Of a stretch of DNA of 64,000 bases, positions 5,547-58,766 are shown one piece after another; position 1 is the stretch's first letter; each line of letters opens with the position of its first letter. Below the pieces are notes generated by a model. That model was not told the origin of the DNA. It made no database searches and saw only the letters and a program-made list of their open reading frames with translations. A program made the position numbers and the translations under genes. Source of the DNA: a virus. The DNA is taken from the IMG/VR virus record IMGVR_UViG_3300042451_001197, positions 1-64,000 of that record, one strand, 5' to 3'.

Positions 5547-8500
5547 TCATTCAATTATAAATAATTCTTTAATTAATGTATTGTTTTTGTTATCTCTAAC
5601 CATTATAAAATATATTCCCGTATTAAGACTGGTTAGATTTAATTGGTCTTCGGATTTATTATAACCCGAATAAACAACTTGTCCTAAACTATTCTTAACC
5701 TCAACAAAATAAATATCACTTTCACCTCTAAAAACTCTAAATTCCATAATTCCTTTACCAGGATTTGGGTAGACAATAAAATCTAAGTCTTTATTATTGT
5801 TGTCATCTAAACCAACCATTCTTACATCACAAACTTTATTGACCCCAAAATAACCCATAGGACTTGACCCACAAGTATTCACACCCATAACACTAAAAGT
5901 TCCCCCAAAGAAAGATGACGATGTTTTAGCATATACCACATTACCCGTGGTCGAACCTATAAAAGAAGTTCCGTTGGGGTTACTCCAAATATAACTCGCA
6001 TTTCTTGGTGATATCGATGCGGTTAACATTATGGTGTCAGGAAAACAAGCTTGATTTATACCTGTAATTGTCGGTCTTTGTGTTAGTAACCCAATTCTTC
6101 TAGTACTCTTTACGGTACCACAAGAAAATTGTGTTGTTAATCTAATACTATCACAAGAGTTATTAATACAAGTTGACTCAAAATTACTTGGGAAAAATAC
6201 ACTTATTGAATTAGTTCCCTGACCACTAACTATCTGAGCATTATTTGGTACCGACCAAGTAAATGATAATGCTCCTGTTGTAGAAACACTATAAGTATTT
6301 GTATAACCATTGTCAACACAACTTGAACCATTTATAGTTACGGTTGGAAGTCCTACACTTACAACTCTAGTTAATGTTACAGGATTTCCACATCCTCCTG
6401 TTATGACTAACTGAATATTACCTCCAGTAAATCCATTTTGGAATGTTACTTGAATCGAATTTGTTCCTTGACCACTAACTATTGTTGAATTAACGGGAAC
6501 TGACCAATTGTAATTAACCCCACTTATTGGTGTAACACTAAAAGTTGTTGATGTATTTGTTCCAATTATACTACAAACACTTCTTACCCCTGATATTGAA
6601 GATGATGAAATTGTTGATTGGGTTGTTGATAAAGTTTTAGTTGATGATATACTACCACCACAACCATTATTTAGATTAACACTAATTGTTCCCGAAACAA
6701 ATGAGTTAGACACTAATACATTTATGACATTAGTTCCTTGACCTGATTGTATTGTCATATTTGTTGGAACTGACCAAGTAAATGTTCCACTTTGGTTTGT
6801 TACACTATAAGTTACCGATTGACCTAAGTATGGACATAAATCTCCAGGACCTGATATTGTACCAATATTACTATAAAGGTTGTTATTTGATACTGAACCA
6901 TAAGTCATAGGTGAACTACCACATTGATTAACTGACATTACACTAAACTGACCTGAAGTAAACGTGGTACTAAATTTAACTTTGATAGTGTCATTGTTAT
7001 TATTACCAACTAAAGAAACTCCATTCGGTAATCCCCATATATAATTAAATGAAGTTGGGACTGAATCTACACGATAGGTATAAATTGTATTACCATCAGA
7101 ACAAACCGTGGAAGGTCCTAAAATTGAAGTTGGTCTTGTAACATATTTGTCAATGGTAAATGTTTTAGTCGTGGTACTACAAGCGTTTGTTGCGGTAACC
7201 GAAGCGACTGAACCTGTAACAAAGTACATACTAAATTTAAACTGAACCGTATCATTACCTTGTCCTGAAAATACGTTAACCCCATACGGAGGAACCCAAG
7301 TATAAGTTGTATTTGGTTGTGAATTTGTAACTATATATTGTTTAATACTACCAATAGGGTCACCACAGAAATTACCTGAGATTGTAGGTTTGTTAGGTAA
7401 TTTAGAAACCCAAATACTTCTATGATAAGTAATGCCATTTGAAACAACATCAACTTCAATACTATCTTGAATAAACCCACTTGAAAAAGTTACATTAACA
7501 TTTTGACTACTCAACCCATTGGAAGATGTAACACTATTTGGTAATATCCAAGAAATGGTATTAGGTACCCCATTAGAATAGTTTATGGTGTACGTTGTTG
7601 AGTTAATACCACATATTGAACTAATACCACTAATTTGTCCTACAATAATTGGTGTTGAGTTACAACCCAAATTTACAGATGTTTGTGACGTACAACTTTT
7701 AGAATCAGTTACCGTTAAAGTGTAATTACCCGAAGGAATGTTTGTTAAATTTTGTGATGATGAACCATTAGACCAAGAATAAGAATAAGGTGATGTCCCA
7801 CCAACAACACTTACATTAATACTACCATTATTAAACCCACAGGTTGGTGTTACCGATGATGTAACAGAAATACTTAATTGATTTGGTTGACTTACATTTA
7901 AAGTTGTGATTTTATTACAACCTTTGTTATCAGTTATAGTTACGTTATAGTTACCTGCAGTTAAATTACTAATCGTATTTTGATTACTACCATTACCCCA
8001 TAAAATAATATAAGGTGATGTTCCACCTGAGATGTTTGTTACTGAAAGACTACCATTACTTTCACCAAAACAATTTACATTTGTTACTGAAGTGGTAACC
8101 GTAATTGTTGATGGTTGTGTTATTGTAACTGAGTTGGTTGTTGTACAACCTTTACTATCCGTGATTGTTACTGAATAAGTGTTTGCTGGTAAATTATTTA
8201 AGTCTTGATTAGTAGAACCATTAGACCAACTATATGAATAAGGTGAAGTTCCACCACTTGGGGTTAAGTTAATACTACCATTGACACCATTAAAACAACT
8301 AACATTTACGGAAGTTAATGATGATGTAAGTAACGTAGGTTGTGTGATTGTAACCGAGTTAGTTGAACTACATAGGTTGTTATCAGTAATTGTAACTGAG
8401 TAATTACCCGATGTTAGATTAGATATATCTTCAATTGTTCCACCATTTGACCAACTAAAAGTAAAAGGACTATTTCCTGTTGGTGTTAAATCTATCGAAC

Positions 8501-11087
8501 CATCACTACCACCATTACAAGAAACATTAATTGAAGTTAGTGTTGAAGTTGGCGGATAAGCTATAGTCCAACTAGATAAAATATCATAAGCATTGTTCGT
8601 ACAACCAATTCCTGTTGTACAATTTCCTCTTCTACCTCTAATTTGAACCGTAATCCCATCACTTAAAGATGATGTTGATATTGTTGTACCAGGAATATAA
8701 TTTGACCAAGAAGTTCCGTTAATTGTATATTGAAATATGTCAGAACAACCAACCCCACTTGAACCTGAATTGAATGTTGCGGATAAATCAGTTCCGACAC
8801 AAACATTATTAGTATTCGGTGTTTTAGTATTTAATGTTGGGTTAATTGGGTCAGGAATGACCGTAACCGTATGAATGTTTGATGTATCTTTACAACCATT
8901 ACCATCTGTAACGATAACTCTATAATCTCTCGTTACGGTTGGGGTTGCATTTATTGTTGAGGTGGTTACCGTATTTGACCAACTACCACTATTAAATTGC
9001 CATTGATAGGTATATGTCGGTATTCCCAATGTAACTGATGAAGTTATGTTGTTTGTTCCTGAACCACCCGCACAAATCTGTGATGAACTTGGTATTGTTA
9101 CAATCGGACTTGTGGCTAAAGATAATGTAACCGTATTTGAGTTTGTCGATTGATTACAACTATTTGTAACTTGAACATAGTAGTTTCCAAGGGTTGATGT
9201 TGAGTATGTGTCACTATTAGCTCCCGATATACTAACTCCGTTACGATACCATTGATATGTAAATGGTGTTCTAACCCCTGACGCAACAACTGAAAATGTT
9301 TGTGGTGTTGTACAAGTTTGTAAATTAATTGGTTGGGTTGTAATAGTTGGTGGTGATGAAGTATAAGTAACACCTAACTGAAAGTTTCCTTTAGCACTTC
9401 CATAACCTGTGACTAAAACATAATAGTCAGTATTGTTTGTTGAAGTGAAGGTAACTCTTGATTGTGTCGAACAATCGTCATCATTATAAGTTAAACAAGT
9501 TAGAGAACCACAAACTCCCGTATATACAAATAATTTAGTATCGAATGAAGTTCCTGTACATAAACTTAAAGTTATGTTTTGTCCATTACCAACCACCTTA
9601 TACCAAACACCAGGTGCTGTCCAAGTTTCAAAAACGTCTGTGAAACAACTCGGAGAATCCCCTGTTTGAGTTGCGTAATTAGTACTTCCATTCCAAGTTA
9701 CATCACAAGTTGTTGAGATTGCACCCGAACATAAATCGTTTGATGGGAGTGGAATACTACATTTTACTTGTCTTGTTCTGCTAACAGACTGAGTTCCACA
9801 ATTACTATTAGTATGAGTATAAAATCGAACAACTTCATCTGAAGTTGGTGTGTAGATTATTGGTGTTGTTCCGTAAATATATTTTGTTGTTCCACCACTA
9901 TTTGTTATGGTAATAAAATCTGTGGAAACTGAACTATTAAATGTATATTGAACGTTTGAAATTAAACTAACGTTTGAGTATTCACCCGCATATCCTAATG
10001 TTGTAATGTTTTCAAAAGAACCTGAACAAGATGGTGAGTATGTTGTAGAAGGATATAAAGTTCCGTTCGTACATCCAGGTGTTGATGTTGTAAATGACCA
10101 AGTTGAACAACTTAAAGCCGTACCTGCCGAATTTTTAGGAATAACCTTCCAATAATAAGTGGTCGAATTTGACAACGTTGGTGTATATGAAGTACCTGAT
10201 TGATTAACTACAAATGGGGGTGAACTATTTGTTCCAAAGTAAACGTCATAACTTGTTGCGTTACTAACCACACCCCAATTTAAAGTTTGTGATAATAAAA
10301 TGTCTGTTGAATTGTTTGTCGGTGATGTTAGTGTGGCACAAACGGGTATTGCGGTATAGGTTAATATTACACGACCCGCAGCTCCCGCTCCACCATTTCT
10401 TGATGTGGTGTTGTTTTTAAATGCTCCTCCACCCCCACCACCAGGTGTTGAACCTGCCGTACCATTACCACCCGAAGCGTGTCCACTACCACCATTACCA
10501 CCACCTGAAGGGGCTGTTGCTCCTGCAGTTCCTGTAGCATCAGTACCATTAGCAGAAGTCCCCGCACCTGAACCACCACCTCCAGAAGTTACTCCACCAA
10601 CCCTACCTGAACCACCTCGATATATTGTTTGTCCAACCGAATTAGTTGTTGTCCCGACACCCGCAGTAGTTCCAACCGCACTTTGACCGCCTTTTGCTAA
10701 GACACCATCATTAGAAGATGTGGGAGATGAGTTAGTTAATTCATTGACCCAAGTGTCATTTCCATTTGCAGCGTTACCTGATGTTCCTGTTCTTGACGCT
10801 CCAACCACCCAATAAATAATTTGACCAGGAGTTACGGATATTGTTGATATAGAATGAGAACCTCCCGCACCACCCGCTAAACCACCTGTTCCTGTGGTTG
10901 ATTGTCCTGTTCCCGCACCTCCACCACCCCAAGCATCAATCTTAATTGAATACACGTTTGAAGGTACAATCCAAGAACCCGAACCAGAACCTACTAAAGT
11001 TCCTGATGCAGGCATTGCAGTTTGTGAAAATGATTTAATACATAATAGTGTGAATAGAGTTAAAAATATGTATGTTATTTTTTTCAT
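5547..11087 (-). CDS. Large secreted adhesin-like protein: signal peptide, Gly-rich domain, FN3/Ig, SprB repeats, PKD-like repeats, T9SS type-A C-terminal sorting domain
   Basis: MKK...SFSQ signal peptide; repeats VSCxGxSxGSIxLTxxGGTSPYSYSWSNG; C-terminal YPNP...SLGQVV...LNTGIYFI...KELFIIE. Confidence 0.88.
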   Translation of the reverse strand: MKKITYIFLTLFTLLCIKSFSQTAMPASGTLVGSGSGSWIVPSNVYSIKIDAWGGGGAGTGQSTTGTGGLAGGAGGSHSISTISVTPGQIIYWVVGASRTGTSGNAANGNDTWVNELTNSSPTSSNDGVLAKGGQSAVGTTAGVGTTTNSVGQTIYRGGSGRVGGVTSGGGGSGAGTSANGTDATGTAGATAPSGGGNGGSGHASGGNGTAGSTPGGGGGGAFKNNTTSRNGGAGAAGRVILTYTAIPVCATLTSPTNNSTDILLSQTLNWGVVSNATSYDVYFGTNSSPPFVVNQSGTSYTPTLSNSTTYYWKVIPKNSAGTALSCSTWSFTTSTPGCTNGTLYPSTTYSPSCSGSFENITTLGYAGEYSNVSLISNVQYTFNSSVSTDFITITNSGGTTKYIYGTTPIIYTPTSDEVVRFYTHTNSNCGTQSVSRTRQVKCSIPLPSNDLCSGAISTTCDVTWNGSTNYATQTGDSPSCFTDVFETWTAPGVWYKVVGNGQNITLSLCTGTSFDTKLFVYTGVCGSLTCLTYNDDDCSTQSRVTFTSTNNTDYYVLVTGYGSAKGNFQLGVTYTSSPPTITTQPINLQTCTTPQTFSVVASGVRTPFTYQWYRNGVSISGANSDTYSTSTLGNYYVQVTNSCNQSTNSNTVTLSLATSPIVTIPSSSQICAGGSGTNNITSSVTLGIPTYTYQWQFNSGSWSNTVTTSTINATPTVTRDYRVIVTDGNGCKDTSNIHTVTVIPDPINPTLNTKTPNTNNVCVGTDLSATFNSGSSGVGCSDIFQYTINGTSWSNYIPGTTISTSSLSDGITVQIRGRRGNCTTGIGCTNNAYDILSSWTIAYPPTSTLTSINVSCNGGSDGSIDLTPTGNSPFTFSWSNGGTIEDISNLTSGNYSVTITDNNLCSSTNSVTITQPTLLTSSLTSVNVSCFNGVNGSINLTPSGGTSPYSYSWSNGSTNQDLNNLPANTYSVTITDSKGCTTTNSVTITQPSTITVTTSVTNVNCFGESNGSLSVTNISGGTSPYIILWGNGSNQNTISNLTAGNYNVTITDNKGCNKITTLNVSQPNQLSISVTSSVTPTCGFNNGSINVSVVGGTSPYSYSWSNGSSSQNLTNIPSGNYTLTVTDSKSCTSQTSVNLGCNSTPIIVGQISGISSICGINSTTYTINYSNGVPNTISWILPNSVTSSNGLSSQNVNVTFSSGFIQDSIEVDVVSNGITYHRSIWVSKLPNKPTISGNFCGDPIGSIKQYIVTNSQPNTTYTWVPPYGVNVFSGQGNDTVQFKFSMYFVTGSVASVTATNACSTTTKTFTIDKYVTRPTSILGPSTVCSDGNTIYTYRVDSVPTSFNYIWGLPNGVSLVGNNNNDTIKVKFSTTFTSGQFSVMSVNQCGSSPMTYGSVSNNNLYSNIGTISGPGDLCPYLGQSVTYSVTNQSGTFTWSVPTNMTIQSGQGTNVINVLVSNSFVSGTISVNLNNGCGGSISSTKTLSTTQSTISSSSISGVRSVCSIIGTNTSTTFSVTPISGVNYNWSVPVNSTIVSGQGTNSIQVTFQNGFTGGNIQLVITGGCGNPVTLTRVVSVGLPTVTINGSSCVDNGYTNTYSVSTTGALSFTWSVPNNAQIVSGQGTNSISVFFPSNFESTCINNSCDSIRLTTQFSCGTVKSTRRIGLLTQRPTITGINQACFPDTIMLTASISPRNASYIWSNPNGTSFIGSTTGNVVYAKTSSSFFGGTFSVMGVNTCGSSPMGYFGVNKVCDVRMVGLDDNNNKDLDFIVYPNPGKGIMEFRVFRGESDIYFVEVKNSLGQVVYSGYNKSEDQLNLTSLNTGIYFIMVRDNKNNTLIKELFIIE

Positions 11088-26317: not shown

Positions 26318-28180
26318 TTACTTAACTTCCTCAAACTCAACATCATTTGGGTCTATTGTGGTTGATTGGTCTCCATCGCCACTACTTTGATACATTTCTT
26401 GTGAAATTTTGTGGAAATGTTCATTTAATTCATCCATATGTTTTGTAACAGACTCAACATCTTTTTTACTATGAGATTCTTTTAATAAATCTAACTTAGA
26501 ATTAATTTCGGTTTTTTGTTCTTCTGTTAATTTATCTGATAAATCATTCATTGATTTGGTAATATTGAATATTGTACTATCCGCCATATTTAAAACCTCA
26601 GCATCTTCTTTGGATTTCTTATCTGATTCGGCATTTAATTCCGCATCTCTTTTCATTCTTTCAATATCTTCTTGCGATAAACTTGATGAAGATTCAATTC
26701 TAATTGATTGTGTTTTGTTTGTGGCTTTATCAACCGCAGAAACATTAATTATACCGTCTGCATTCACATCAAACACGACTTCTATTTGAGGTGTTCCTCT
26801 CATAGCGGGTGGAATACCATCTAAATGAAATCTACCAATAGTTTTATTATCTTTTGCCATAGCTCTCTCACCTTGTAATACGTGAATTTCCACACTTGGT
26901 TGATTATCTGATGCGGTAGAAAAAACTTGTGATTTTTTGGTTGGAATTGTTGTATTTGACTCGATTAATTTTGTAAACACACCACCCATAGTTTCAATAC
27001 CTAAAGATAATGGTGTAACATCTAACAATAAAACATCCTTAACATCGCCCGCTAAAACACCTCCTTGAATTGCCGCTCCTAAAGCTACAACTTCATCAGG
27101 ATTTACCCCTTTTGATGGGTCTTTTCCGAAGAATTTCTTAACTGCGTCTTGGATTGCAGGAATTCTTGTTGTACCACCAACTAAGATAATTTCATCAATA
27201 TCACTCGGATTTAATTTCGCGTTTCTTAATGCTGACTTACAAGGGTCAATAGTTCTCTGAACCAAAGAATCTACCAATTGTTCAAATTTAGACCTTGTAA
27301 GTGTCTTAACTAAGTGTTTTGGAATACCATCTACCGGCATAATATAAGGTAAGTTAATCTCTGTTGAAACGCTTGAGGATAGTTCTATTTTAGCCTTTTC
27401 AGCGGCCTCCTTTAATCTTTGCAATGCCATAGGGTCTTTAGAAATATCGATACCATTCTCATCTTTAAACTCCTTAACTAACCAATCTATGATTGTATTG
27501 TCAAAATCATCACCACCTAAATGAGTATCACCATCTGTTGACAATACTTCAAAAACGCCATCACCTAATTCTAAAACTGATACATCGTGAGTTCCACCAC
27601 CACAATCAAATACCACGACCAAAATATCCTTATCTTTCTTATCAAGACCATAAGCTAGAGCGGCCGATGTGGGCTCGTTTATGATACGTCTTACATTTAA
27701 CCCCGCAATCTCACCGGCCTCTTTAGTTGCCTGTCTTTGAGCATCGTTAAAGTAAGCGGGTACGGTAATAACCGCGTCAGTCACAGAAGTTCCTAAATAA
27801 TCTTCAGCGGTCTGTTTCATTTTTTGTAAGATGATTGCCGAAACCTCTTGTGGGGAGTATTTTCTATCATCAATCTCAACTCTTGGAGAATTATTATCAC
27901 CTTTCACTACTTTATAAGGAACTCTTGTTAATTCCTTTTTGGATTCTTCAAAAGAAGTCCCCATAAATCTTTTAATTGAATGGATTGTTTTATCGGGGTT
28001 TGTAACCGATTGTCTTTTAGCAGGGTCTCCTATTTTTCTTTCCCCACTTGTTGTAAAACCAACGATTGATGGTGTTGTTCTCTTACCTTCACTATTAGGT
28101 ATCACCACAGGTTCATTACCTTCCATTACCGCAACACACGAATTCGTGGTCCCTAAATCAATTCCTATTATTTTTCCCAT
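26318..28180 (-). CDS. dnaK: Molecular chaperone DnaK (Hsp70)
   Basis: [41 protein letters not shown]. Confidence 0.97.
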
Positions 28181-52965: not shown

Positions 52966-53244
52966 ATGGATATTTCTAAATCAAAATTAAAAGGTATTAA
53001 ATTAGTTTTAATTAAACATAGTAATGAATTGATTACTGATGTTGACTTCTTTGTTAACTACTTGGGTTATAGACCTGAGTTAGTTTTAATGGTTGATATT
53101 GATTGGGATAAATTACCCGATGATGTAAAGAACAAACCCGTTTATTATTTAAAGGAAAAGTATGGTGAATCTGTCCACAATATTTTAAAGATGTTGGAGA
53201 TTCCTTTTAATGGTGACATTAATTTTGAGGTGATGAACAAATAA
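52966..53244 (+). CDS. Hypothetical protein
   Basis: TATTTAT at 52954-52960. Confidence 0.6.
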   Translation: MDISKSKLKGIKLVLIKHSNELITDVDFFVNYLGYRPELVLMVDIDWDKLPDDVKNKPVYYLKEKYGESVHNILKMLEIPFNGDINFEVMNK

Positions 53245-53253
53245 TTATACTAT

Positions 53254-53586
53254 ATGAAATTTGAGATAGGTGACGATAAATTGGAACAGGTAATCTTTAA
53301 GTATTTAGATAGAAAAGATTTCATTATTGAGGAGACTGATGATGACTATTATTTTTTAGAAGATAAGAGTGATATAATTTCTAGGATTAGGGTTAAAAAA
53401 GATAATATGTATTGTCTTGTTCATTATAAATTATCAAAAGAACTTAAAACATTTTTTTCACTAAACGATGATTACTTAATTAAGGTATTAACAAATTATG
53501 TTAATAAAACTTTGGATATTAAATTATCAAAAATTGAAATAAAAAATGTTATTGGTTTATTCGTCGTTAACTATTGGTCTGAGTAA
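53254..53586 (+). CDS. Paralog-family protein
   Basis: MKFEIGDDKLEQVIFKYLD. Confidence 0.75.
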   Translation: MKFEIGDDKLEQVIFKYLDRKDFIIEETDDDYYFLEDKSDIISRIRVKKDNMYCLVHYKLSKELKTFFSLNDDYLIKVLTNYVNKTLDIKLSKIEIKNVIGLFVVNYWSE

Positions 53587-53619
53587 TTATGTTAATTTAT
53601 TTTCGTATATTTATACTAT

Positions 53620-53913
53620 ATGAAATTTGAAATTAATGAAAATAAGTTGGAGAAGGTTATCTTTAAGTACTTGGATAATAAGAATTTTGTTATTAGGGAA
53701 ACTCCTTTGGAGTATATCTTTTTGACTTTGGATGATAAATATCCTCCGATTAAGATTAGAAAAAACAATATGATTTGTCTTATTTATTTTAAATTAGTAA
53801 AGGAAATTAGTTCCTTTTTTTCTATTAGTGAAATTGATTCTAAAAACTTTATAAGTAGGTATGTTAAAAACAAATTTAATCTTAAAATTTCTGTCTCCTA
53901 TATTGACGGATAA
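53620..53913 (+). CDS. Paralog-family protein
   Basis: MKFEINENKLEKVIFKYLD. Confidence 0.75.
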   Translation: MKFEINENKLEKVIFKYLDNKNFVIRETPLEYIFLTLDDKYPPIKIRKNNMICLIYFKLVKEISSFFSISEIDSKNFISRYVKNKFNLKISVSYIDG

Positions 53914-53944
53914 TTAATCTTACCTCCCTTATATTTATTACTAT

Positions 53945-54250
53945 ATGAAATTTGAAATTAATGAGAATAAGTTAGATAAGATTATCTTTCGGTATTTAGA
54001 TGGTAAAAACTTTATCATTAAGGAGACTGATAATTTTTATTATTTTTTTGAAAATGAGTCCGATGAATATGTTGAGATTAAGGTTAGAAAACGTGATATG
54101 AGTTGTTTTATTAGATACGAATTATCTGATGAAATTAAATCGTTTTTTACAATTGATAATCTTAAAGTAAAAGATGTTTTAAAAAAATATATTAATAATA
54201 TTTTAAATGTTAAAATAACTAATTCTTACGATAGTATTAATTGGAGGTGA
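53945..54250 (+). CDS. Paralog-family protein
   Basis: MKFEINENKLDKIIFRYLD. Confidence 0.75.
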   Translation: MKFEINENKLDKIIFRYLDGKNFIIKETDNFYYFFENESDEYVEIKVRKRDMSCFIRYELSDEIKSFFTIDNLKVKDVLKKYINNILNVKITNSYDSINWR

Positions 54251-54271
54251 ATTATATATATTTATTACTAT

Positions 54272-54697
54272 ATGAAACTACAAGAACAAATACATAGAAT
54301 ACAAGAGATGATGGGTTTGAATGAGGATTATAAACCTATGGGAAAGAAACATAAACCAAGTAAATTTGTTTATCATAAATCCCCGCCTTTGGTTAGAGAT
54401 AGTATTCTTAAATCAGGTTTATTGGTATCTGTTGGTGATTGTTATAAAACATACTCTGAAAACTTTTCTAAAGAAGAATGTGTTCCCGCTGTGTTTGCAA
54501 CTGATTCTGAAAATGAAAATTATTGGTATGAATCAACTTGGGATGATGATGTTTGGATGATTGATACAGAATGTGCTGGTGTTACTTGGTATAAAGATAA
54601 TCATTATGAAGATTATGATTACCATATTGTCACCTTTGAAGATATATCTCCCGATTGTATAAAATTAATCTATAAAGGAACGGGGGAAGATAATTAA
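54272..54697 (+). CDS. Possible ADP-ribosyltransferase-fold protein with MKLQEQI leader
   Basis: VYHKS....DSILKSGL...AVFAT...IVTFEDISPDCI. Confidence 0.45.
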   Translation: MKLQEQIHRIQEMMGLNEDYKPMGKKHKPSKFVYHKSPPLVRDSILKSGLLVSVGDCYKTYSENFSKEECVPAVFATDSENENYWYESTWDDDVWMIDTECAGVTWYKDNHYEDYDYHIVTFEDISPDCIKLIYKGTGEDN

Positions 54698-54698
54698 T

Positions 54699-55010
54699 AT
54701 GAAATTCGAGATAAGTGATAATAAGTTGGAGAAGGTTGTCTTTAAGTATTTGGAAGGTAAGAACTTTATCATTAGGGAAACCCCTTATGATTATTACTTT
54801 TTGGAAAACGAGGGCGATAAATATGTTCAAATTAGAATCAGAAAAAATGATATGGTTTGTTTTATTTATTACAAATTAAGTGAAGAAATTGAATCGTTTT
54901 TTTCAATTGAATTTCCTATGGTTAAAGATGTTTTAAAAAAATATGTTGAGAATATCCTAAATATTAAAGTATCTAAAACATTTTTATCTCCAACTATTTT
55001 AATTGCGTAG
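54699..55010 (+). CDS. Paralog-family protein
   Basis: MKFEISDNKLEKVVFKYLE...YVENILNIKVSKT. Confidence 0.75.
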   Translation: MKFEISDNKLEKVVFKYLEGKNFIIRETPYDYYFLENEGDKYVQIRIRKNDMVCFIYYKLSEEIESFFSIEFPMVKDVLKKYVENILNIKVSKTFLSPTILIA

Positions 55011-55030
55011 TTGAGAATACCTTAAATTAA
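54945..55030 (+). repeat. CRISPR-like mini-array 1: repeat, 30-nt spacer, half repeat
   Basis: GTTGAGAATATCCTAAATATTAAAGTATCTAAAAC / ATTTTTATCTCCAACTATTTTAATTGCGTA / GTTGAGAATACCTTAAAT. Confidence 0.7.
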
Positions 55031-55046
55031 TCTATTTATGTAATAA

Positions 55047-55373
55047 ATGAAATTTTTAATAACAGAAAATAAATTGGATAATATAATCTTTCAGTATTTG
55101 GATAATAAGAACTTTATCATTAAAGAAACTCCTTATGATTATTACTTTTTAGAAAACGAAGATGATGAATATCTTCAGATTAGAGTTAGAAAAAGTGATA
55201 TGGAGTGTTCTTTATTCTATGATTTAACCGAAGAAATTAAATCATTTTTTTCAATTAATAAACTTAAAATCAAAGATGTTTTAACAAGATATGTTGAGGA
55301 GACCTTAAACATTAAAGTTTCTCACGTATGGATGGATGGGTCGTTACACATCTCGATGTTAAAAAAGGGTTAA
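55047..55373 (+). CDS. Paralog-family protein
   Basis: MKFLITENKLDNIIFQYLD...YVEETLNIKVS. Confidence 0.75.
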   Translation: MKFLITENKLDNIIFQYLDNKNFIIKETPYDYYFLENEDDEYLQIRVRKSDMECSLFYDLTEEIKSFFSINKLKIKDVLTRYVEETLNIKVSHVWMDGSLHISMLKKG

Positions 55374-55380
55374 AATATTA
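55293..55380 (+). repeat. CRISPR-like mini-array 2 (degenerate)
   Basis: GTTGAGGAGACCTTAAACATTAAAGTTTCTCACGT / 30 nt / GTTAAAAAAGGGTTAAAATATTA. Confidence 0.5.
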
Positions 55381-55392
55381 TATTTATGTTAT

Positions 55393-55749
55393 ATGAAATT
55401 CTTAATCACCGAAAATAAATTGGATAGGATTATTGATTCTTTTATCACCAAACAATTTGAAAATTTGGAACATATTAAAGAAGGTAATTTGGTTGTTTGG
55501 GTTGACCCTGATAAAAAACCATATGTACTTATTAGACACGATGATAATGGTGATTACGATATTAATATTTTGGAAAGTATTTATTTTTTGATTAGTGATA
55601 TGTTTTCTATTAAAGAACTTGAAGATGTGGAGAAATACTTATTAAAATGGTTTGAAAAACACACGGGGATGATTGCCGATGTTGTTTTCGCATTTGATAA
55701 CGATATAACCTATGAAGAAATTATTAGTATATATATTAAAGGTGCCTAA
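55393..55749 (+). CDS. Paralog-family protein
   Basis: MKFLITENKLDRII...MFSI...KWFE. Confidence 0.7.
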   Translation: MKFLITENKLDRIIDSFITKQFENLEHIKEGNLVVWVDPDKKPYVLIRHDDNGDYDINILESIYFLISDMFSIKELEDVEKYLLKWFEKHTGMIADVVFAFDNDITYEEIISIYIKGA

Positions 55750-55803
55750 CACCAATAAAGAATTTTACCGGTTTTTCAATTTATTGATAATACCTTAAAT
55801 TAA
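55732..55803 (+). repeat. CRISPR-like mini-array 3 (3' half repeat, 30-nt spacer, 5' half repeat)
   Basis: TATATTAAAGGTGCCTAACAC / CAATAAAGAATTTTACCGGTTTTTCAATTT / ATTGATAATACCTTAAAT. Confidence 0.6.
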
Positions 55804-55819
55804 TGTATTTATGTAATAT

Positions 55820-56167
55820 ATGAAATTCTTAATCACCGAAAATAAACTTACCAAAGTTATTCAAAAATATATTAATTTTAAAACTAATGACCCTGAATTT
55901 AATTGGGTGGATAAAATTGTTATTGAACGTGGAACAACTGAAGGAATTGGTTCTGATATATTCCCCCTGTATACTTACAAAGTTTATTTTAAAGAAGATA
56001 ATCCCGATTACGAATCACAATTAAAATTATGGCATGTTATATCTTCCGCCCATAAGTTATTATTTCAATCGGATAATGAGGGAAATCCTGTGGCTTATTT
56101 TACCACATCTTCCATTAAACCTGATGGTTCAACTGATTCATTACCAAGCTATCAAAGTAAAAGTTAA
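55820..56167 (+). CDS. ITE-leader protein
   Basis: MKFLITENKL; 5' DNA identical to that of 55393, body different. Confidence 0.7.
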   Translation: MKFLITENKLTKVIQKYINFKTNDPEFNWVDKIVIERGTTEGIGSDIFPLYTYKVYFKEDNPDYESQLKLWHVISSAHKLLFQSDNEGNPVAYFTTSSIKPDGSTDSLPSYQSKS

Positions 56168-56183
56168 TGCATATTTATACCAT

Positions 56184-56504
56184 ATGAAATTCGAGATAAA
56201 TAGTGATAAATTGGGGCAGGTAATTTTTAAGTATTTGACTATTAAATTATCTATTAAAGAAACTCCCGACGGTTATTATTTTTCAGAAGATGGAAATAAT
56301 GCACATATTGTGGTTAGAAAAGACAATATGATTTGTTATGTTAGTATTGATTTTTTGGATGAAATTGAATCATTTTTTTCTATTGAATATCCTTACTCTA
56401 TAGATTTTGTTAGTGAATACGTTGAAAATATTTTAGGTGTTAACTTGCTCAGGACTGTACCATATCTTAAAAGTTGGATTGTTCCTCCCCCTGATAATAA
56501 TTAA
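56184..56504 (+). CDS. Paralog-family protein (start revised)
   Basis: MKFEINSDKLGQVIFKYL; TATTTAT at 56172-56178. Confidence 0.72.
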   Translation: MKFEINSDKLGQVIFKYLTIKLSIKETPDGYYFSEDGNNAHIVVRKDNMICYVSIDFLDEIESFFSIEYPYSIDFVSEYVENILGVNLLRTVPYLKSWIVPPPDNN

Positions 56505-56553
56505 TTAAAATTTTGTATTTGTTTATTTGATAATTTATCATTATCTTTGTATT

Positions 56554-57276
56554 ATGATTTCAGATAAAATTAAAAAAATTATATTTGATAAATTATATAA
56601 GGATTTATCTAATGTTGAGATTATTCCCCACGAAAATAGTATTTGGTTTATAGATAGGGAAGAGAAGTATTGGTATTTTGAATTTACCAAGTCAGGTGAA
56701 TTGTGGTGGAGATATTCTTTCTTTGTTGATTTTTTTCAGTTTTTTTCTATGGAATATAAGGAGTTTGTACCGATTATTAGTGAATGGGTGGAAGAGGTTT
56801 TGAATTCTAAGGTGTTTGAAACAGGGAAATTATTTTACGACTATGCACCTGAAGTGGAAGAGATATTAAATTCTAAGGTATCTACAACTGAAAGTTTATC
56901 CTTTAAGTCAGTAGGGTTGGTGGAAGAGGTATTAAATTTTAAGGTGTCTACAACTACTTCTAAATTTTCAAAAAAAAGCATTATGGTGGAAGAGGTATTA
57001 AATTCTAAGGTGTCTACAACTACGAAAAGACATTCCCCACATATCAGACAGGTGGAAAAAGTGTTAAATTCTAAGGTGTCTACAACAATTCAGGCACAAT
57101 TTCTTCTTCAGTCTCGGGTGGAAGAGATATTAAATTCTAAGGTATCGACAACTTGGTTAAATGGTTGTAATAGGGATGAAAAGGTTGGGGAAGTATTGGA
57201 TTGTAAGGTGACTGAAACCAAATTAGGTCCTACAAGTAAATTTTATGAAATAAATAAGGTTTTATCTCAAACATAA
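56554..57276 (+). CDS. Paralog-family domain fused to seven 22-aa repeats with hypervariable 10-aa inserts (start revised)
   Basis: TATCTTTG 4 nt before ATG 56554; VEEVLNSKVSTT repeats. Confidence 0.8.
   Translation: MISDKIKKIIFDKLYKDLSNVEIIPHENSIWFIDREEKYWYFEFTKSGELWWRYSFFVDFFQFFSMEYKEFVPIISEWVEEVLNSKVFETGKLFYDYAPEVEEILNSKVSTTESLSFKSVGLVEEVLNFKVSTTTSKFSKKSIMVEEVLNSKVSTTTKRHSPHIRQVEKVLNSKVSTTIQAQFLLQSRVEEILNSKVSTTWLNGCNRDEKVGEVLDCKVTETKLGPTSKFYEINKVLSQT
56787..57248 (+). CRISPR. CRISPR-like array inside a CDS: 7 x 36-nt repeat plus 30-nt unique spacers
   Basis: Consensus GGTGGAAGAGGTATTAAATTCTAAGGTGTCTACAAC at 56787, 56853, 56919, 56985, 57051, 57117, 57183; exact 66-nt period; unrelated spacers; no cas gene in the window. 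Confidence 0.55.
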
Positions 57277-57307
57277 CTTAATTCAACATCTCATATATTT
57301 ATATGAT

Positions 57308-57616
57308 ATGAAATTCGAGATTAGTGGTGGTAAATTGGAACAAGTAATATTTAAATACTTGGACGGTAAAAACTTTACCATTAGGGAAACTCCAACCAAT
57401 TATTATTTTTTTGGTGAGCCTCCACACCATTACGCAACAATAAATGTTAGAAAAAGTGATGAGAAGTGTTTTATATATCCAAACCTAATTGAACATCTAT
57501 CTTCTTTTTTTTCTATTAGTGATATAATGTCAACTGACATTATATTAAAATATACCGAAAGTAAACTGAATAATGAATCAACTTCATTATCTCTAAAACT
57601 ATATGGTGATAATTAG
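57308..57616 (+). CDS. Paralog-family protein
   Basis: MKFEISGGKLEQVIFKYLD. Confidence 0.75.
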   Translation: MKFEISGGKLEQVIFKYLDGKNFTIRETPTNYYFFGEPPHHYATINVRKSDEKCFIYPNLIEHLSSFFSISDIMSTDIILKYTESKLNNESTSLSLKLYGDN

Positions 57617-57993
57617 TCGTTCACCCTCTCTATATTAACCATTTTACCATCAGTAAACTTAGCTGAGAACTCAAACCAAGTTTCATTAACATTTGTGTAG
57701 AATCTAACATATCCGTGGTGATTAATTGTCTCAAGTCTTTCGTTAACTCTTCTTAAACAACCAAAAAGATTAGATATTCCAACCTCATTCATATATGGTC
57801 TTTCTTCATTTGGAACTTCTTCCATTTCAAACCTGTTAACTTTAATCTCACCTTCATTGGTTATGTAAATTTCAGTTAATTCTCTGTCAAAATCCTTTGT
57901 CTGAAATTCGTGATTTTCACCAATTAGTTCCTTTTCTTCTTTTGTTATTGGAAGTAAATTTGTATCAATAAATAAGTAATCGAACATTCCCAT
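57613..57993 (-). CDS. Hypothetical phage protein
   Basis: MGMFD...FQTKD...FYT...AKFTDG; TACCTTTG promoter upstream. Confidence 0.7.
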   Translation of the reverse strand: MGMFDYLFIDTNLLPITKEEKELIGENHEFQTKDFDRELTEIYITNEGEIKVNRFEMEEVPNEERPYMNEVGISNLFGCLRRVNERLETINHHGYVRFYTNVNETWFEFSAKFTDGKMVNIERVND

Positions 57994-58052
57994 ATCTTTT
58001 TCTTTTTTACAAAGGTAATAAAATATTATGGGAAAAACAAATATTTATTAAT

Positions 58053-58379
58053 ATGAATTTTGAGATTAACGAAAACAAATTACAAAATATTGTCTTCAAG
58101 TATGTGGACAATAAAAACTATGTCATTAAAGAAACTGATAATGATTATTACTTTATAGAAAACGAAGAAGATGAGTATGCTCAGATTAGAATTAGAAAAA
58201 GTGATAAAGTTTGTGTTATTTATCACAAATTAACTGAAGAAATTGAATCGTTTTTTTCAATTGAATACCCTATGGTTGAAGATGTTTTAACGAGATATGT
58301 TGAGAATACCATAAATATTGAGGTGTCTAAAACCCTATTAGGTATAAATCTTAAAGCAGAAGCGTTGAGAATACCTTAA
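58053..58379 (+). CDS. Paralog-family protein
   Basis: MNFEINENKLQNIVFKYVD...YVENTINIEVSKT. Confidence 0.75.
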   Translation: MNFEINENKLQNIVFKYVDNKNYVIKETDNDYYFIENEEDEYAQIRIRKSDKVCVIYHKLTEEIESFFSIEYPMVEDVLTRYVENTINIEVSKTLLGINLKAEALRIP

Positions 58380-58384
58380 ATTAA
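58299..58384 (+). repeat. CRISPR-like mini-array 4
   Basis: GTTGAGAATACCATAAATATTGAGGTGTCTAAAAC / CCTATTAGGTATAAATCTTAAAGCAGAAGC / GTTGAGAATACCTTAAAT. Confidence 0.72.
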
Positions 58385-58397
58385 ACTATTTATCATT

Positions 58398-58766
58398 ATG
58401 AAATACCTAATCACAGAAAATAAATTAGAAAAGGTTGTCTTTAAATTTTTGGATGGTAAAGATTTAAAAATGATTAAGAAAAAAATTAAACATTATAGTA
58501 ATATCACAAGTACTAGAATATTTTTTGTTTTAAATGAGTCTGATAAAACTTCTGAAATAACTTATGACGGTTGGAGTGGTAAACTTTTTATTAGTTCCGT
58601 TTTATGTGATGAGGTTTTTAATTTCTTTTCTCTTGAGGATGAGGATGATTCTGAATTAATAATTCAAGATTGGGTTGAATCGAAAATTAATAAGGAAATT
58701 GATATTTTTAAAGTACAATCATATCATCCCAATAGTTTTTCAGGAAGTATTTTTGAGATTGATTAA
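58398..58766 (+). CDS. Paralog-family protein
   Basis: MKYLITENKLEKVVFKFLD...FFSL...WVE. Confidence 0.72.
   Translation: MKYLITENKLEKVVFKFLDGKDLKMIKKKIKHYSNITSTRIFFVLNESDKTSEITYDGWSGKLFISSVLCDEVFNFFSLEDEDDSELIIQDWVESKINKEIDIFKVQSYHPNSFSGSIFEID

Follow-up and report, generated by a model that had tools for sequence, protein, structure and literature searches.

A CRISPR-style repeat-spacer array maintained as protein-coding sequence at the 3' end of a lake jumbo phage gene

Can a CRISPR-type array also be the coding sequence of a protein? The question is raised by one gene of an uncultured lake jumbo phage, analysed here in a window of 64,000 nucleotides (the whole stretch of DNA studied, positions 1 to 64,000 of IMG/VR record IMGVR_UViG_3300042451_001197). 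An earlier note, made from the letters of the window alone, had described 36-nt repeats and 30-nt spacers read in frame as the C-terminus of a phage protein, and had offered two alternatives: spacer-acquisition-like insertion diversifies a protein, or the mRNA doubles as a source of guide or decoy RNA. The array at the 3' end of the gene is genuine, and it is kept readable as protein. The reading that we prefer, with a probability of about 0.6, is that a host Cas1-Cas2 extends the phage gene by units of 22 codons and that selection keeps these units translatable.

The ORF contains seven 36-nt repeats alternating with unrelated 30-nt spacers at an exact period of 66 nt, the whole array being in frame and free of stops, as the earlier note had described (Table 1). 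As in CRISPR arrays in general, the direct repeats are near-identical and of fixed length, and the spacers are unique and of near-constant length. Five of the repeats match the previously proposed consensus with three mismatches or fewer (expectation of 0 from 100 shuffles), and the first and last of the seven, R1 and R7, are indeed the most degenerate. The mean pairwise identity of the seven spacers is 8.0/30, versus 8.5 expected from composition, in agreement with their description as mutually unrelated. Relative to the best copy, the repeats carry 24 substitutions, nine of which are synonymous and two V>I, so that changes are often synonymous or conservative, as had been remarked. The last 28 nt of the ORF, which a PSSM scan did not detect, probably constitute a decayed eighth repeat ending the array, with I-N-K-V-L-S aligning with V-E-E-V-L-N; the far-end repeats R7 and R8 are both degenerate. 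Promoter-like sites were no more numerous in the region than in shuffled sequences.

Table 1. Features of the array gene and its immediate 5' flank, in window coordinates; repeat identities are relative to the best copy, R4.
Feature	Position	Strand	Remarks
Promoter-like site	56527..56555	+	TTGATA-17-TATTAT, 10/12; weak consensus match only, just 5' of the start codon
ORF, 240 aa: N-terminal domain and translated array	56554..57276	+	No stop
~77-aa N-terminal domain coding sequence	56554..56786	+	Conserved domain; occupies the CRISPR-leader position, 5' of R1
Repeat R1	56787..56822	+	31/36; degenerate 3' end GTTTGAAAC
Spacer S1 (GKLFYDYAPE)	56823..56852	+	Common to homolog P0002; no viral-contig match
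Repeat R2	56853..56888	+	33/36
Spacer S2 (ESLSFKSVGL)	56889..56918	+	Unique; no metagenome or viral-contig match
Repeat R3	56919..56954	+	35/36
Spacer S3 (TSKFSKKSIM)	56955..56984	+	Low complexity; partial A-rich chance matches only
Repeat R4, best copy GGTGGAAGAGGTATTAAATTCTAAGGTGTCTACAAC	56985..57020	+	0 mismatches; 24/36 to F. columnare VI-B repeat, in register
Spacer S4 (TKRHSPHIRQ)	57021..57050	+	30/30 to Flavobacterium HxlR-family gene, other frame
Repeat R5	57051..57086	+	33/36
Spacer S5 (IQAQFLLQSR)	57087..57116	+	Common to homolog P0003; no viral-contig match
Repeat R6	57117..57152	+	33/36
Spacer S6 (WLNGCNRDEK)	57153..57182	+	Common to P0001-P0004; old, far-end; no viral-contig match
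Repeat R7	57183..57218	+	26/36, degenerate
Spacer S7 (KLGPTSKFYE)	57219..57248	+	Common to P0001-P0004; no viral-contig match
Probable decayed terminal (eighth) repeat with stop codon, INKVLSQT*	57249..57276	+	Read from sequence

The units of related phages bear the marks of two layers of constraint, one on the peptide and one on the DNA. None of 151 unique units contains an in-frame stop, whereas the two alternative frames are interrupted in 92 and 47 units. In the translated frame 143 of 143 spacers are free of stops, compared with 36-69% in each of the five others; a stop is expected in 47% of random Flavobacterium 30-mers. Within the repeat, the least conserved positions, two variable codons aside, are all wobble positions. 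Frame-specific avoidance of stops, together with this wobble-biased variation, indicates that the repeat peptide is itself selected. To judge from these patterns, translation of the array is under selection and the repeat peptide under purifying selection; CRISPR arrays are generally non-coding and processed into crRNAs, whereas this one is an ORF selected to stay open. The translated frame encodes more acidic and fewer hydrophobic residues than the other stop-free frames, and the composition of the spacer peptides resembles that of translated random DNA. The predicted product consists of a small folded domain followed by units of 12 constant and 10 effectively random residues.

In the DNA, 124 unique units from 29 related arrays define a conserved block of exactly 36 nt, which ends mid-codon. 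Its first base, the wobble position of a variable codon, had been singled out in the earlier note as G in six of the seven copies; it is G in 122 of the 124 units. The base after the block, position 37 (the wobble base of the last Thr codon), is unconstrained at 0.07 bit. Within the block, wobble positions 13, 16, 28 and 31 vary, and there is almost no variation at wobble positions 19, 25 and 34.

An always-open frame and mostly synonymous repeat variation would also be found in an ordinary 22-residue tandem-repeat protein, possibly an LRR-like solenoid, with exposed half-repeats made hypervariable by point mutation, diversifying selection and unequal recombination, and with a coincidental likeness to CRISPR. 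Several properties of the protein family suit such an explanation. Homologs (E<=0.01) comprise 1207 metagenomic proteins with lengths that step by about 22 aa; the layout of this large family (>1200 proteins) is a conserved domain of ~77 aa and then 22-aa units in varying number, with an invariant W78/V79 at the junction, and array genes are often present several per phage genome. The N-terminal domain is paralogous to about 10 small genes nearby, a repeat-like 3' element is present in about 12 consecutive paralogs, and the start of the repeat falls in a C-terminal helix that these neighbours also have. The family profile matches the LRR protein Crov588 (summed E 3e-17; VENVLPxxLTHL versus VEEVLNSKVSTT; PMC9525666), and, because the constant 12 residues resemble this FNIP/FGxxFN LRR at a 22-residue period, part of the regularity could be protein-driven. 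However, there was no Pfam FNIP or LRR match, and where the FNIP unit has its FGxxFN half the phage unit has random sequence. Prediction with AF2 (25-sequence alignment) gave weak beta-hairpins in the array and a pLDDT of 52, too poor for a fold search. The invariant wobble G before the repeat and the free base after C36 are left over by this explanation, the in-register match to a VI-B repeat and the random-like spacers do not fit it, and it provides no account of the exact, out-of-frame copy of a bacterial gene segment, ending at the repeat edges, that is described below. We consider it very unlikely. Pfam, PHROGs, PADLOC and a protein atlas yielded no match for the array protein or its neighbours. 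In one homolog only, among those scanned, there was a weak match to DUF6407 (26.9 bits, cut-off 25).

The earlier note had proposed searching for the spacers in phage, plasmid and Bacteroidota genomes. A source was identified for one of the seven spacers in the window, S4, which is identical over 30/30 nt to a segment of a Flavobacterium genome (G062:C36), within a gene of the HxlR family (PF01638, 4e-28) that has SDR and oxidoreductase genes as neighbours. The two repeat edges mark the exact limits of the identity, and the reading frame used by the phage is not that of the HxlR gene. The per-genome E-value of this match was 1.9e-8, with a next best value among about 800 genomes of 1.6e-5. The same 30-mer occurs in the same gene context on nine metagenome contigs, none of which has repeats beside it; the transfer therefore went from bacterium to phage. 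At the level of sequence, the comparison establishes that spacer 4 is of bacterial origin, and through it the array has what CRISPR arrays generally have, a sequence copied from elsewhere as a spacer.

The six other spacers were without a source. S6 matches an F. columnare ORF at 25/30 positions, in the same frame, and this may be a chance match. Related phage arrays provided one near match (27/30), located in a second genome (G265), among 21 spacers and none among 16. There was no credible spacer match in 50,697 isolate phages and none in plasmids; the 24-nt cores of S1, S2, S5, S6 and S7 were absent from IMG/VR, S2 was absent from the metagenome contigs, and 400 further Flavobacteriaceae genomes plus 120 relatives of G062 contained only chance-level partial matches. 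The best isolate-phage match, 28/30 to a Pelagibacter phage, was judged to be due to chance because it runs into the repeat, and Flavobacterium matches overlapping the repeats lay in ordinary genes, not arrays. No spacer was derived from the phage's own DNA, and in these searches none was phage-derived, contrary to what one would expect of a Cas1-Cas2 that takes up DNA in infected cells. Upstream of both protospacers (n=2, too few for motif inference) the acquisition motif of F. columnare, TTTANNNNN, was absent; it lies upstream of only about 50% of VI-B protospacers in F. columnare (PMC8092290). The spacers of G062 and G265 match neither this phage nor related loci. Three other mechanisms were considered and dropped: a DGR, for which there is no template copy because the spacers resemble neither one another nor the rest of the 106.8-kb record; a cyanobactin-like precursor, for which the protease is lacking; and internal initiation, for which there are no conserved start contexts.

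Orthologous arrays, in three groups, have far-end spacers in common and differ mostly at the domain-proximal end, by whole units. The earlier note had suggested aligning orthologs as a check on the polar gain and loss of 66-nt units. In P0001-P0004, S6 and S7 are common and the upstream spacers differ. Internal gains and losses of units are also seen, and these are compatible with recombination in a tandem-repeat protein. Since R1 is degenerate, S1 is common to P0002 and the middle spacers differ, strict polarity from the leader end fails unless recombination or internal insertion is allowed. The dynamics of the array appear CRISPR-like across the related phages. A plain tandem repeat, as the earlier note had framed it, would have spacers homologous to each other or conserved position by position, and no protospacer; the spacers are neither, and one has a protospacer.

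The geometry of the array had been likened to that of both type VI-B and type II-C CRISPR. The first likeness holds in part. Aligned ungapped and in register, the phage block and the Cas13b-adjacent VI-B repeat of F. columnare are identical at 24/36 positions; among the 213,568 36-mers of the phage record, none besides this block scores as high, and its orientation is that of the crRNA and leader side. The length of 36 nt, the ACAAC end and part of the outer stem are kept. However, the 5' end is GGUGG, not GUUG, and the predicted folding energy is -4.3 kcal/mol (z -0.4), versus -10.9 kcal/mol (z -2.5) for the F. columnare VI-B repeat, the inner hairpin having been lost; the paired GUUG...CAAC ends and internal hairpin that define VI-B repeats are thus not found together here. 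The second likeness does not extend to the repeat itself: the II-C repeat, at 16/36, was rejected as a model. Rfam searches of positions 56400-57400 (E<=10) returned no CRISPR-DR or other credible family. A loose repeat-end pattern run over all genomes returned mostly single chance matches, with only the F. columnare array being real. A T-rich tract coding for FFxxFF at -40 to -60 would lie at a distance similar to that of the poly(T) of host leaders.

These features bear on the second alternative of the earlier note, a working guide or decoy RNA array for host Cas13b or Cas9, which would retarget the effector to host transcripts or rival phages, or saturate it, translation being secondary or RNA-stabilising. 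The repeat is in the crRNA sense on the mRNA and retains the VI-B end motifs together with some of the outer stem; huge phages carry compact, cas-less arrays with host-like repeats, some aimed at host genes (PMC7162821), phage repeat mimics act as RNA anti-CRISPRs (PMC10651486), and the lack of self-derived spacers would fit effector-driven counter-selection. The lost hairpin and the absence of a CRISPR-DR match speak against such a role, and the frame-specific absence of stops and wobble-biased variation imply that it is the peptide that is selected. Moreover, S4 has the same sense as the HxlR mRNA and would therefore be unable to direct Cas13b to that transcript, and Cas13b was not detected in G062. 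An RNA-guide role for the array is unsupported, and we hold it to be quite unlikely. The first alternative, protein diversification by a process resembling spacer acquisition, gains from the S4 copy, the VI-B-like boundaries, the turnover by whole units and the selected translation.

The earlier note had seen no cas gene in the window, and the same holds for Cas1 and Cas13b in the whole 106.8-kb record (G000). Searches for both were likewise negative in the related jumbo phages G402 (326 kb) and G403 (309 kb), each complete, and in G404 (82% complete), as was that for Cas13b in G405 (71% complete); in the F. columnare control both genes were recovered. CRISPR arrays generally have associated cas genes in cis or in the same genome, unlike this one as far as Cas1 and Cas13b are concerned. 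The genome that holds the S4 segment carries, besides cas1, a II-C array in which 36-nt repeats recur every 65-66 nt (30-nt spacers), and G265 has cas1 and a II-C array of the same kind. We infer that Flavobacterium is the host of the phage.

We likewise infer that Cas1-Cas2 performs the insertion. On the preferred reading, the 3' two thirds of the gene would be a CRISPR-type array that grows and turns over by 66-nt insertions, each consisting of a duplicated 36-nt repeat and a captured 30-nt DNA fragment, and the most likely agent would be the type II-C Cas1-Cas2 integrase of the Flavobacterium host. There is a precedent for action in trans, as the cas1-less Cas13b (VI-B) arrays of F. columnare are loaded by II-C Cas1-Cas2, with 36-bp repeats at both loci (Hoikkala et al. 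2021, PMC8092290). Because 66 nt correspond to 22 codons, every insertion would keep the frame, and selection would remove stop-bearing units and retain the repeat-encoded peptide. The exact copy of part of a Flavobacterium gene in S4 suggests that the host spacer-capture machinery writes 10-residue segments into the phage protein. Recognition of the phage repeat by the host integrase is putative, given its partial identity to the VI-B repeat, the lost internal hairpin and its lower identity to the II-C repeat.

The same enzyme could act without benefit to the protein, if a leader-repeat-like 3' end draws off-target Cas1-Cas2 and the phage tolerates the insertions or gains by diverting host integration. 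In E. coli, new arrays are known to arise by off-target integration (Nivala et al. 2018, as recounted in PMC7054753), the repeat-like 3' elements of the paralogs in a row would provide such ends, and insertions of 66 nt are always frame-neutral. However, multi-unit arrays are kept throughout the family and often several times per genome, and this retention, with the apparent purifying selection on the repeat peptide and the acid-rich, hydrophobic-poor character of the translated frame, suggests that the product matters and is not merely tolerated. A by-product or sink of this kind is, in our estimation, unlikely.

As for function, our best guess is that the putative protein contacts a rapidly evolving host factor through a hypervariable surface built on a modular, possibly LRR-like, scaffold. 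We propose only tentatively, at rather less than even odds, that Flavobacterium jumbo phages have turned host CRISPR adaptation into a generator of diversity for their own proteins, by way of a gene family that terminates in an integrase-competent repeat, and so place new surface loops on such a scaffold; by analogy, the function would resemble that of lamprey VLRs or DGR targets, written by spacer acquisition. We found no published description of a translated CRISPR-type array in a phage gene. If the preferred reading is right, CRISPR adaptation would have a second natural output beside immune memory, the editing of a parasite's protein-coding gene, and protein hypervariability a new route, in which captured DNA is inserted as coding cassettes. 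A phage locus serving as substrate for a host integrase would be a new form of phage-host crosstalk, phage genomes could hold a natural record of the bacteria infected (here an HxlR-bearing Flavobacterium lineage), and in-frame recording or the construction of peptide libraries with Cas1-Cas2 could take the locus as a natural template. With more than 1200 metagenomic members in the family, this is not the curiosity of one genome.

Among known systems, the FNIP/FGxxFN LRR of Crov588 (PDB 6NYR; PMC9525666) has the same 22-residue period and the hydrophobic V-E-x-V-L...L pattern of the constant half. The FGxxFN(Q) half that characterises FNIP LRRs is replaced here by unrelated 10-mers of random sequence, with no Pfam match at E<=0.1 and no confident fold; foreign inserts and a repeat boundary in the DNA are features of the phage gene that Crov588 lacks. 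RNA anti-CRISPRs, or solitary repeat units (Camara-Wilpert et al. 2023, PMC10651486), are likewise phage mimics of host repeats without cas genes, but these Racrs are non-coding and keep their RNA structure, whereas the repeat of the phage array is translated and has lost the hairpin. The cas-less arrays of huge phages are compact, with a median of six repeats (Al-Shayeb et al. 2020, PMC7162821), and resemble ours in being short arrays of jumbo phages without Cas1, Cas2 or Cas4, often without an effector, with host-like repeats and some host-chromosome spacers. They are described as non-coding sources of guides, whereas ours encodes the C-terminal portion of the proteins of a conserved family, with stops avoided in a frame-specific manner.

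The VI-B arrays of F. columnare share with the phage array a 36-nt repeat (24/36 identical), spacers of 29-30 nt, G...ACAAC ends, the leader-side orientation and the absence of adjacent adaptation genes. Host-chromosome spacers are commonly acquired there, host and phage DNA being taken about evenly (PMC8092290). They differ in that the phage array lies within an ORF and is translatable, has no Cas13b anywhere in the phage and no internal hairpin in its repeat, and follows a protein-coding domain in place of a leader. Finally, in the off-target integration described by Nivala, Shipman and Church (2018), in so far as it is recounted in PMC7054753, a spacer is placed by Cas1-Cas2 at a pseudo leader-repeat site that is not in a CRISPR locus, and the neighbouring sequence is copied to become a new repeat, much as proposed here. 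In that account the events are rare and occur in E. coli overproducing Cas1-Cas2, whereas the phage gene would be a natural target, maintained in evolution within a coding sequence.

Seven copies of a 36-nt repeat (R1-R7), separated by 30-nt segments (spacers S1-S7), lie at an exact 66-nt period within an ORF, the entire array being in frame. The encoded protein comprises a ~77-aa N-terminal domain, seven units of VEEVLNSKVSTT plus 10 variable residues, and the tail INKVLSQT-stop, which looks like a decayed eighth repeat. The consensus given in the earlier note was recovered with no more than three mismatches in five copies (shuffles expect 0), and mean spacer-spacer identity was 8.0/30, versus 8.5 expected from composition, indicating no likeness beyond composition. 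The array described there, with unrelated spacers and with its first and last copies the most degenerate (R1, 31/36; R7, 26/36), is real and far beyond chance. A scan of the whole record, a 106.8-kb IMG/VR virus contig, identified no repeat copies outside the array; this contig is estimated to be 36% complete and is therefore a fragment of a jumbo phage.

Coordinates of the array, its surroundings and other phage genes in the window
Position	Feature	Remarks
3-917	RNA ligase / tail-fibre attachment catalyst (phrog_562)	
5547-11087	Large ORF	1846 aa
12675-14999	DNA methyltransferase	
26318-28180	phrog_22485 protein with a ParB-like part	620 aa
43515-44369	DNA methyltransferase	
52966-58766	Run of small genes, + strand	14 genes, of which ~10 are paralogs sharing a single ~75-aa domain (MKFEI...)
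54944-55030	Repeat, 29 nt and partial second repeat	In a paralog
56554-57276	ORF of the array protein	240 aa
56716-56750	FFxxFFxxFS motif	
56787-57248	Array, R1-R7 with S1-S7	
56791-56835	R1 and first 13 nt of S1	Likeness to a Flavobacterium gene
57021-57050	S4	
57153-57182	S6	
58298-58384	Repeat, 29 nt and partial second repeat	In a paralog

Metagenomic relatives of the array protein (1207 at E≤0.01) range from 174 to 403 aa in steps of ~22 aa. The N-terminal domain is present in every one, followed by a varying number of 22-aa units, and certain 10-mers reappear as whole cassettes across different homologs. Related loci (n=38) were found on viral contigs, the longest of 326 kb, and often comprise two or three array genes in tandem. 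No family match was obtained in Pfam, PHROG or PADLOC. The repeat begins within the C-terminal helix of the domain common to the neighbouring paralogs, several of which terminate in a VExxLNxKVSxT-like element and then a variable, unrelated tail. The N-terminal domain of the array gene belongs to the same fold family as these paralogs, and each small gene of the run is preceded by a conserved element, TATTTATAC..ATATG. Two paralogs contain a repeat, 29 nt and a partial second repeat (GTTGAGAATACCTTAAATTAA), 65 nt start to start; in both, the shifted frame stops at once (spacer TA + repeat G), and the appearance is that of a mini-array with a single spacer, the ORF having been closed by a 29-nt insert. 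The repeat in these paralogs starts with GTTGAG, nearer to the GTTGGG of the type VI-B CRISPR repeat.

Units were rebuilt at the DNA level from 29 arrays, yielding 124 unique 66-mers in which the conserved block is exactly 36 nt long. Its first base, the third of the final (variable) spacer codon, is G in 122/124 units, confirming the wobble signal reported earlier; G is the rarest base at all other spacer wobble positions. At the 3' end, the boundary falls after the second base of the final Thr codon, and the base beyond it is free (0.07 bit). Wobble positions 19 (T, 124/124), 25 (G, 120/124, giving AAG instead of the AT-rich AAA) and 34 (A, 123/124) are near-invariant, and positions 13, 16, 28 and 31 differ between phages. 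Sharp edges lying off codon edges, together with fixed wobbles, imply either constraint at the nucleotide level or a copying footprint. With two freely variable codons set aside, the positions of lowest conservation in the repeat are all wobble positions. In an ORF-blind DNA-level scan, none of the spacers of 151 unique units had an in-frame stop, versus 92 and 47 in the two remaining frames; 143/143 spacers were open in the translated frame, versus 36-69% in the five other frames, and 47% of simulated random Flavobacterium 30-mers contained an in-frame stop. The lack of stops and the wobble-biased variation indicate, on evolutionary grounds, that translation through the array is under selection. 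The spacer peptides resemble translated random DNA (C 2.4%, H 4.0%, W 1.6%), with a composition correlating better with a random-DNA simulation (r 0.67) than with the N-terminal domain (0.38). Their D+E content (10.3%, versus 5-7% in other stop-free frames) hints at extra filtering beyond stops.

The AF2 model of the array protein was of low confidence (pLDDT 52). The family profile matched one solved structure, Crov588 (summed E 3e-17, VENVLPxxLTHL versus VEEVLNSKVSTT), a closed solenoid of 22-residue FNIP/FGxxFN leucine-rich repeats (PMC9525666). Membership of this family was rejected: the 22-residue period and hydrophobic pattern are common to both proteins, but random 10-mers replace the defining FGxxFN half in the array protein. 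These common features suggest why added units might be structurally tolerated.

A pattern scan across bacterial genomes recovered the array of F. columnare ATCC 23463, located directly downstream of a Cas13b gene (NF038190, 7e-235), with the 36-nt VI-B repeat GTTGGGAAAGCCCTTATTTTGAAGGGTATCTACAAC and spacers of 29-30 nt. The window's five good repeats agree with this VI-B repeat at 24/36 positions; of the 213,568 36-mers in the phage record (mean 9.6, sd 2.6), no other reached 24. The matching positions concentrate at both ends (G-TGG-A-AG and GGT-TCTACAAC). The II-C repeat of F. columnare matches at 16/36 positions, yet shares the CCACAAC end. The FFxxFFxxFS motif of the N-terminal domain, found in the same region of related loci, is coded by T-runs 40-60 nt upstream of R1, approximately the distance of the poly(T) tract in Flavobacterium II-C and VI-B leaders. 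The phage mRNA carries the repeat in the crRNA sense, the coding region of the N-terminal domain occupying the leader position. The F. columnare repeat folds into a hairpin of -10.9 kcal/mol (z -2.5), whereas the phage repeat reaches -4.3 kcal/mol (z -0.4) and keeps the outer stem in part only, as weak a hairpin as first noted; Rfam gave no match to the repeat array. A pure guide-RNA array would leave both the lost hairpin and the frame-specific selection unexplained.

A search of the array against 401 Flavobacterium genomes, part of the proposed spacer search for protospacers, gave one outstanding match. S4 is identical (30/30) to a segment of genome G062 (contig C36; E 1.9e-8 per genome, versus 1.6e-5 for the next best), within an HxlR-family regulator gene (PF01638, 4e-28) flanked by SDR and oxidoreductase genes. 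The identity is bounded precisely by C36 of one repeat and G1 of the next; at the latter edge the bacterium has AAA and the phage GGT, independently confirming that the wobble G is part of the repeat. The bacterial gene encodes ...LRKDIPHISDK..., and the phage frame, one over, gives TKRHSPHIRQ. The same 30-mer occurs in nine metagenome contigs, always in HxlR context and never flanked by repeats (0/9); the bacterium was therefore the donor and the phage the recipient. G062 has a gene for Cas1 as well as a II-C array whose 36-nt repeats recur with a period of 65-66 nt. Immediately downstream of the HxlR gene is a DDE transposase fragment (L175:1819-2232); the donor DNA may be mobile or belong to a chromosomal stretch rich in breakpoints. 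Of 21 spacers in a related phage, one matches Flavobacterium genome G265 (27/30) in antisense to a 438-aa ORF; cas1 adjoins a 36/30 array in G265. None of the 16 spacers in a third set was matched. The other six window spacers had no credible isolate-phage match and none in plasmids; the 24-nt cores of S1, S2, S5, S6 and S7 were absent from IMG/VR and S2 from metagenome contigs, and 400 further Flavobacteriaceae genomes and G062 relatives gave at most partial hits at chance level. No spacer copied from the phage itself was found. Among CRISPR spacers in general, only a few per cent usually yield a hit. S6 resembles an F. columnare ORF (G001:C98:5574-5601) at 25/30 in the same frame (WLNGCNRDEK versus WLNGINSDEP; E 0.0045), in one Flavobacterium genome and no other, probably by chance. 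R1 with the start of S1 shares 82% identity across 45 nt with a Flavobacterium gene (G372:C31:360-404) encoding a similar peptide in the same frame (EEVFDPKMLEKGKLF versus EEVLNSKVFETGKLF; E 1.6e-5 per genome); this likeness may be accidental or may hint at how the degenerate first unit arose.

The homologs nearest to the window protein (P0002-P0004) have its far-end units (WLNGCNRDEK, KLGPTSKFYE and the tail) and differ from it in upstream units. P0003 additionally has IQAQFLLQSR; beyond this unit the window carries four that are its own, one of them with the HxlR spacer. Within each of three groups of orthologous arrays in related phages, every array ends in the same spacer and variation is greatest at the first one; whole units have also been gained or lost internally. 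The pattern, although not clean, would fit CRISPR-like polarised growth with recombination. As R1 is degenerate and S1 is common to P0002, recombination or insertion at R2 would be needed.

In agreement with the absence of cas genes from the window, Cas1 was not detected in the window record, two complete related jumbo phages (326 and 309 kb) or a third at 82% completeness, nor Cas13b in these four and a further related record at 71%; both were detected in the F. columnare positive control. In F. columnare, the II-C and VI-B loci both have 36-bp repeats, II-C Cas1-Cas2 loads the cas1-less VI-B array in trans, and new VI-B spacers derive from host and phage genomes in about equal share (PMC8092290). 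Each added unit (36 + 30 = 66 nt, 22 codons) never frameshifts. From the lack of phage Cas1, the in-trans loading and this frame neutrality, we infer that a host integrase, Cas1-Cas2, would add 66-nt units to the phage gene.

Of the two roles first proposed, protein diversification by insertion is favoured by the bacterial copy of S4 and the repeat edges, and guide production by the mRNA is disfavoured by the lost hairpin and frame-specific selection. A plain tandem-repeat protein leaves unexplained the foreign 30-mer, the DNA-level edges and the in-register VI-B likeness. The reading that accommodates all the data is a CRISPR-type array lengthened by captured DNA and retained as coding sequence. 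No description of a translated CRISPR array was found in the literature searched; compact cas-less phage arrays, adaptation in trans, off-target integration and RNA anti-CRISPRs have been described before. The phage repeat has the same 36-nt length as the F. columnare VI-B repeat and aligns with it ungapped in the same register, but it has lost the inner hairpin and lies within an ORF.
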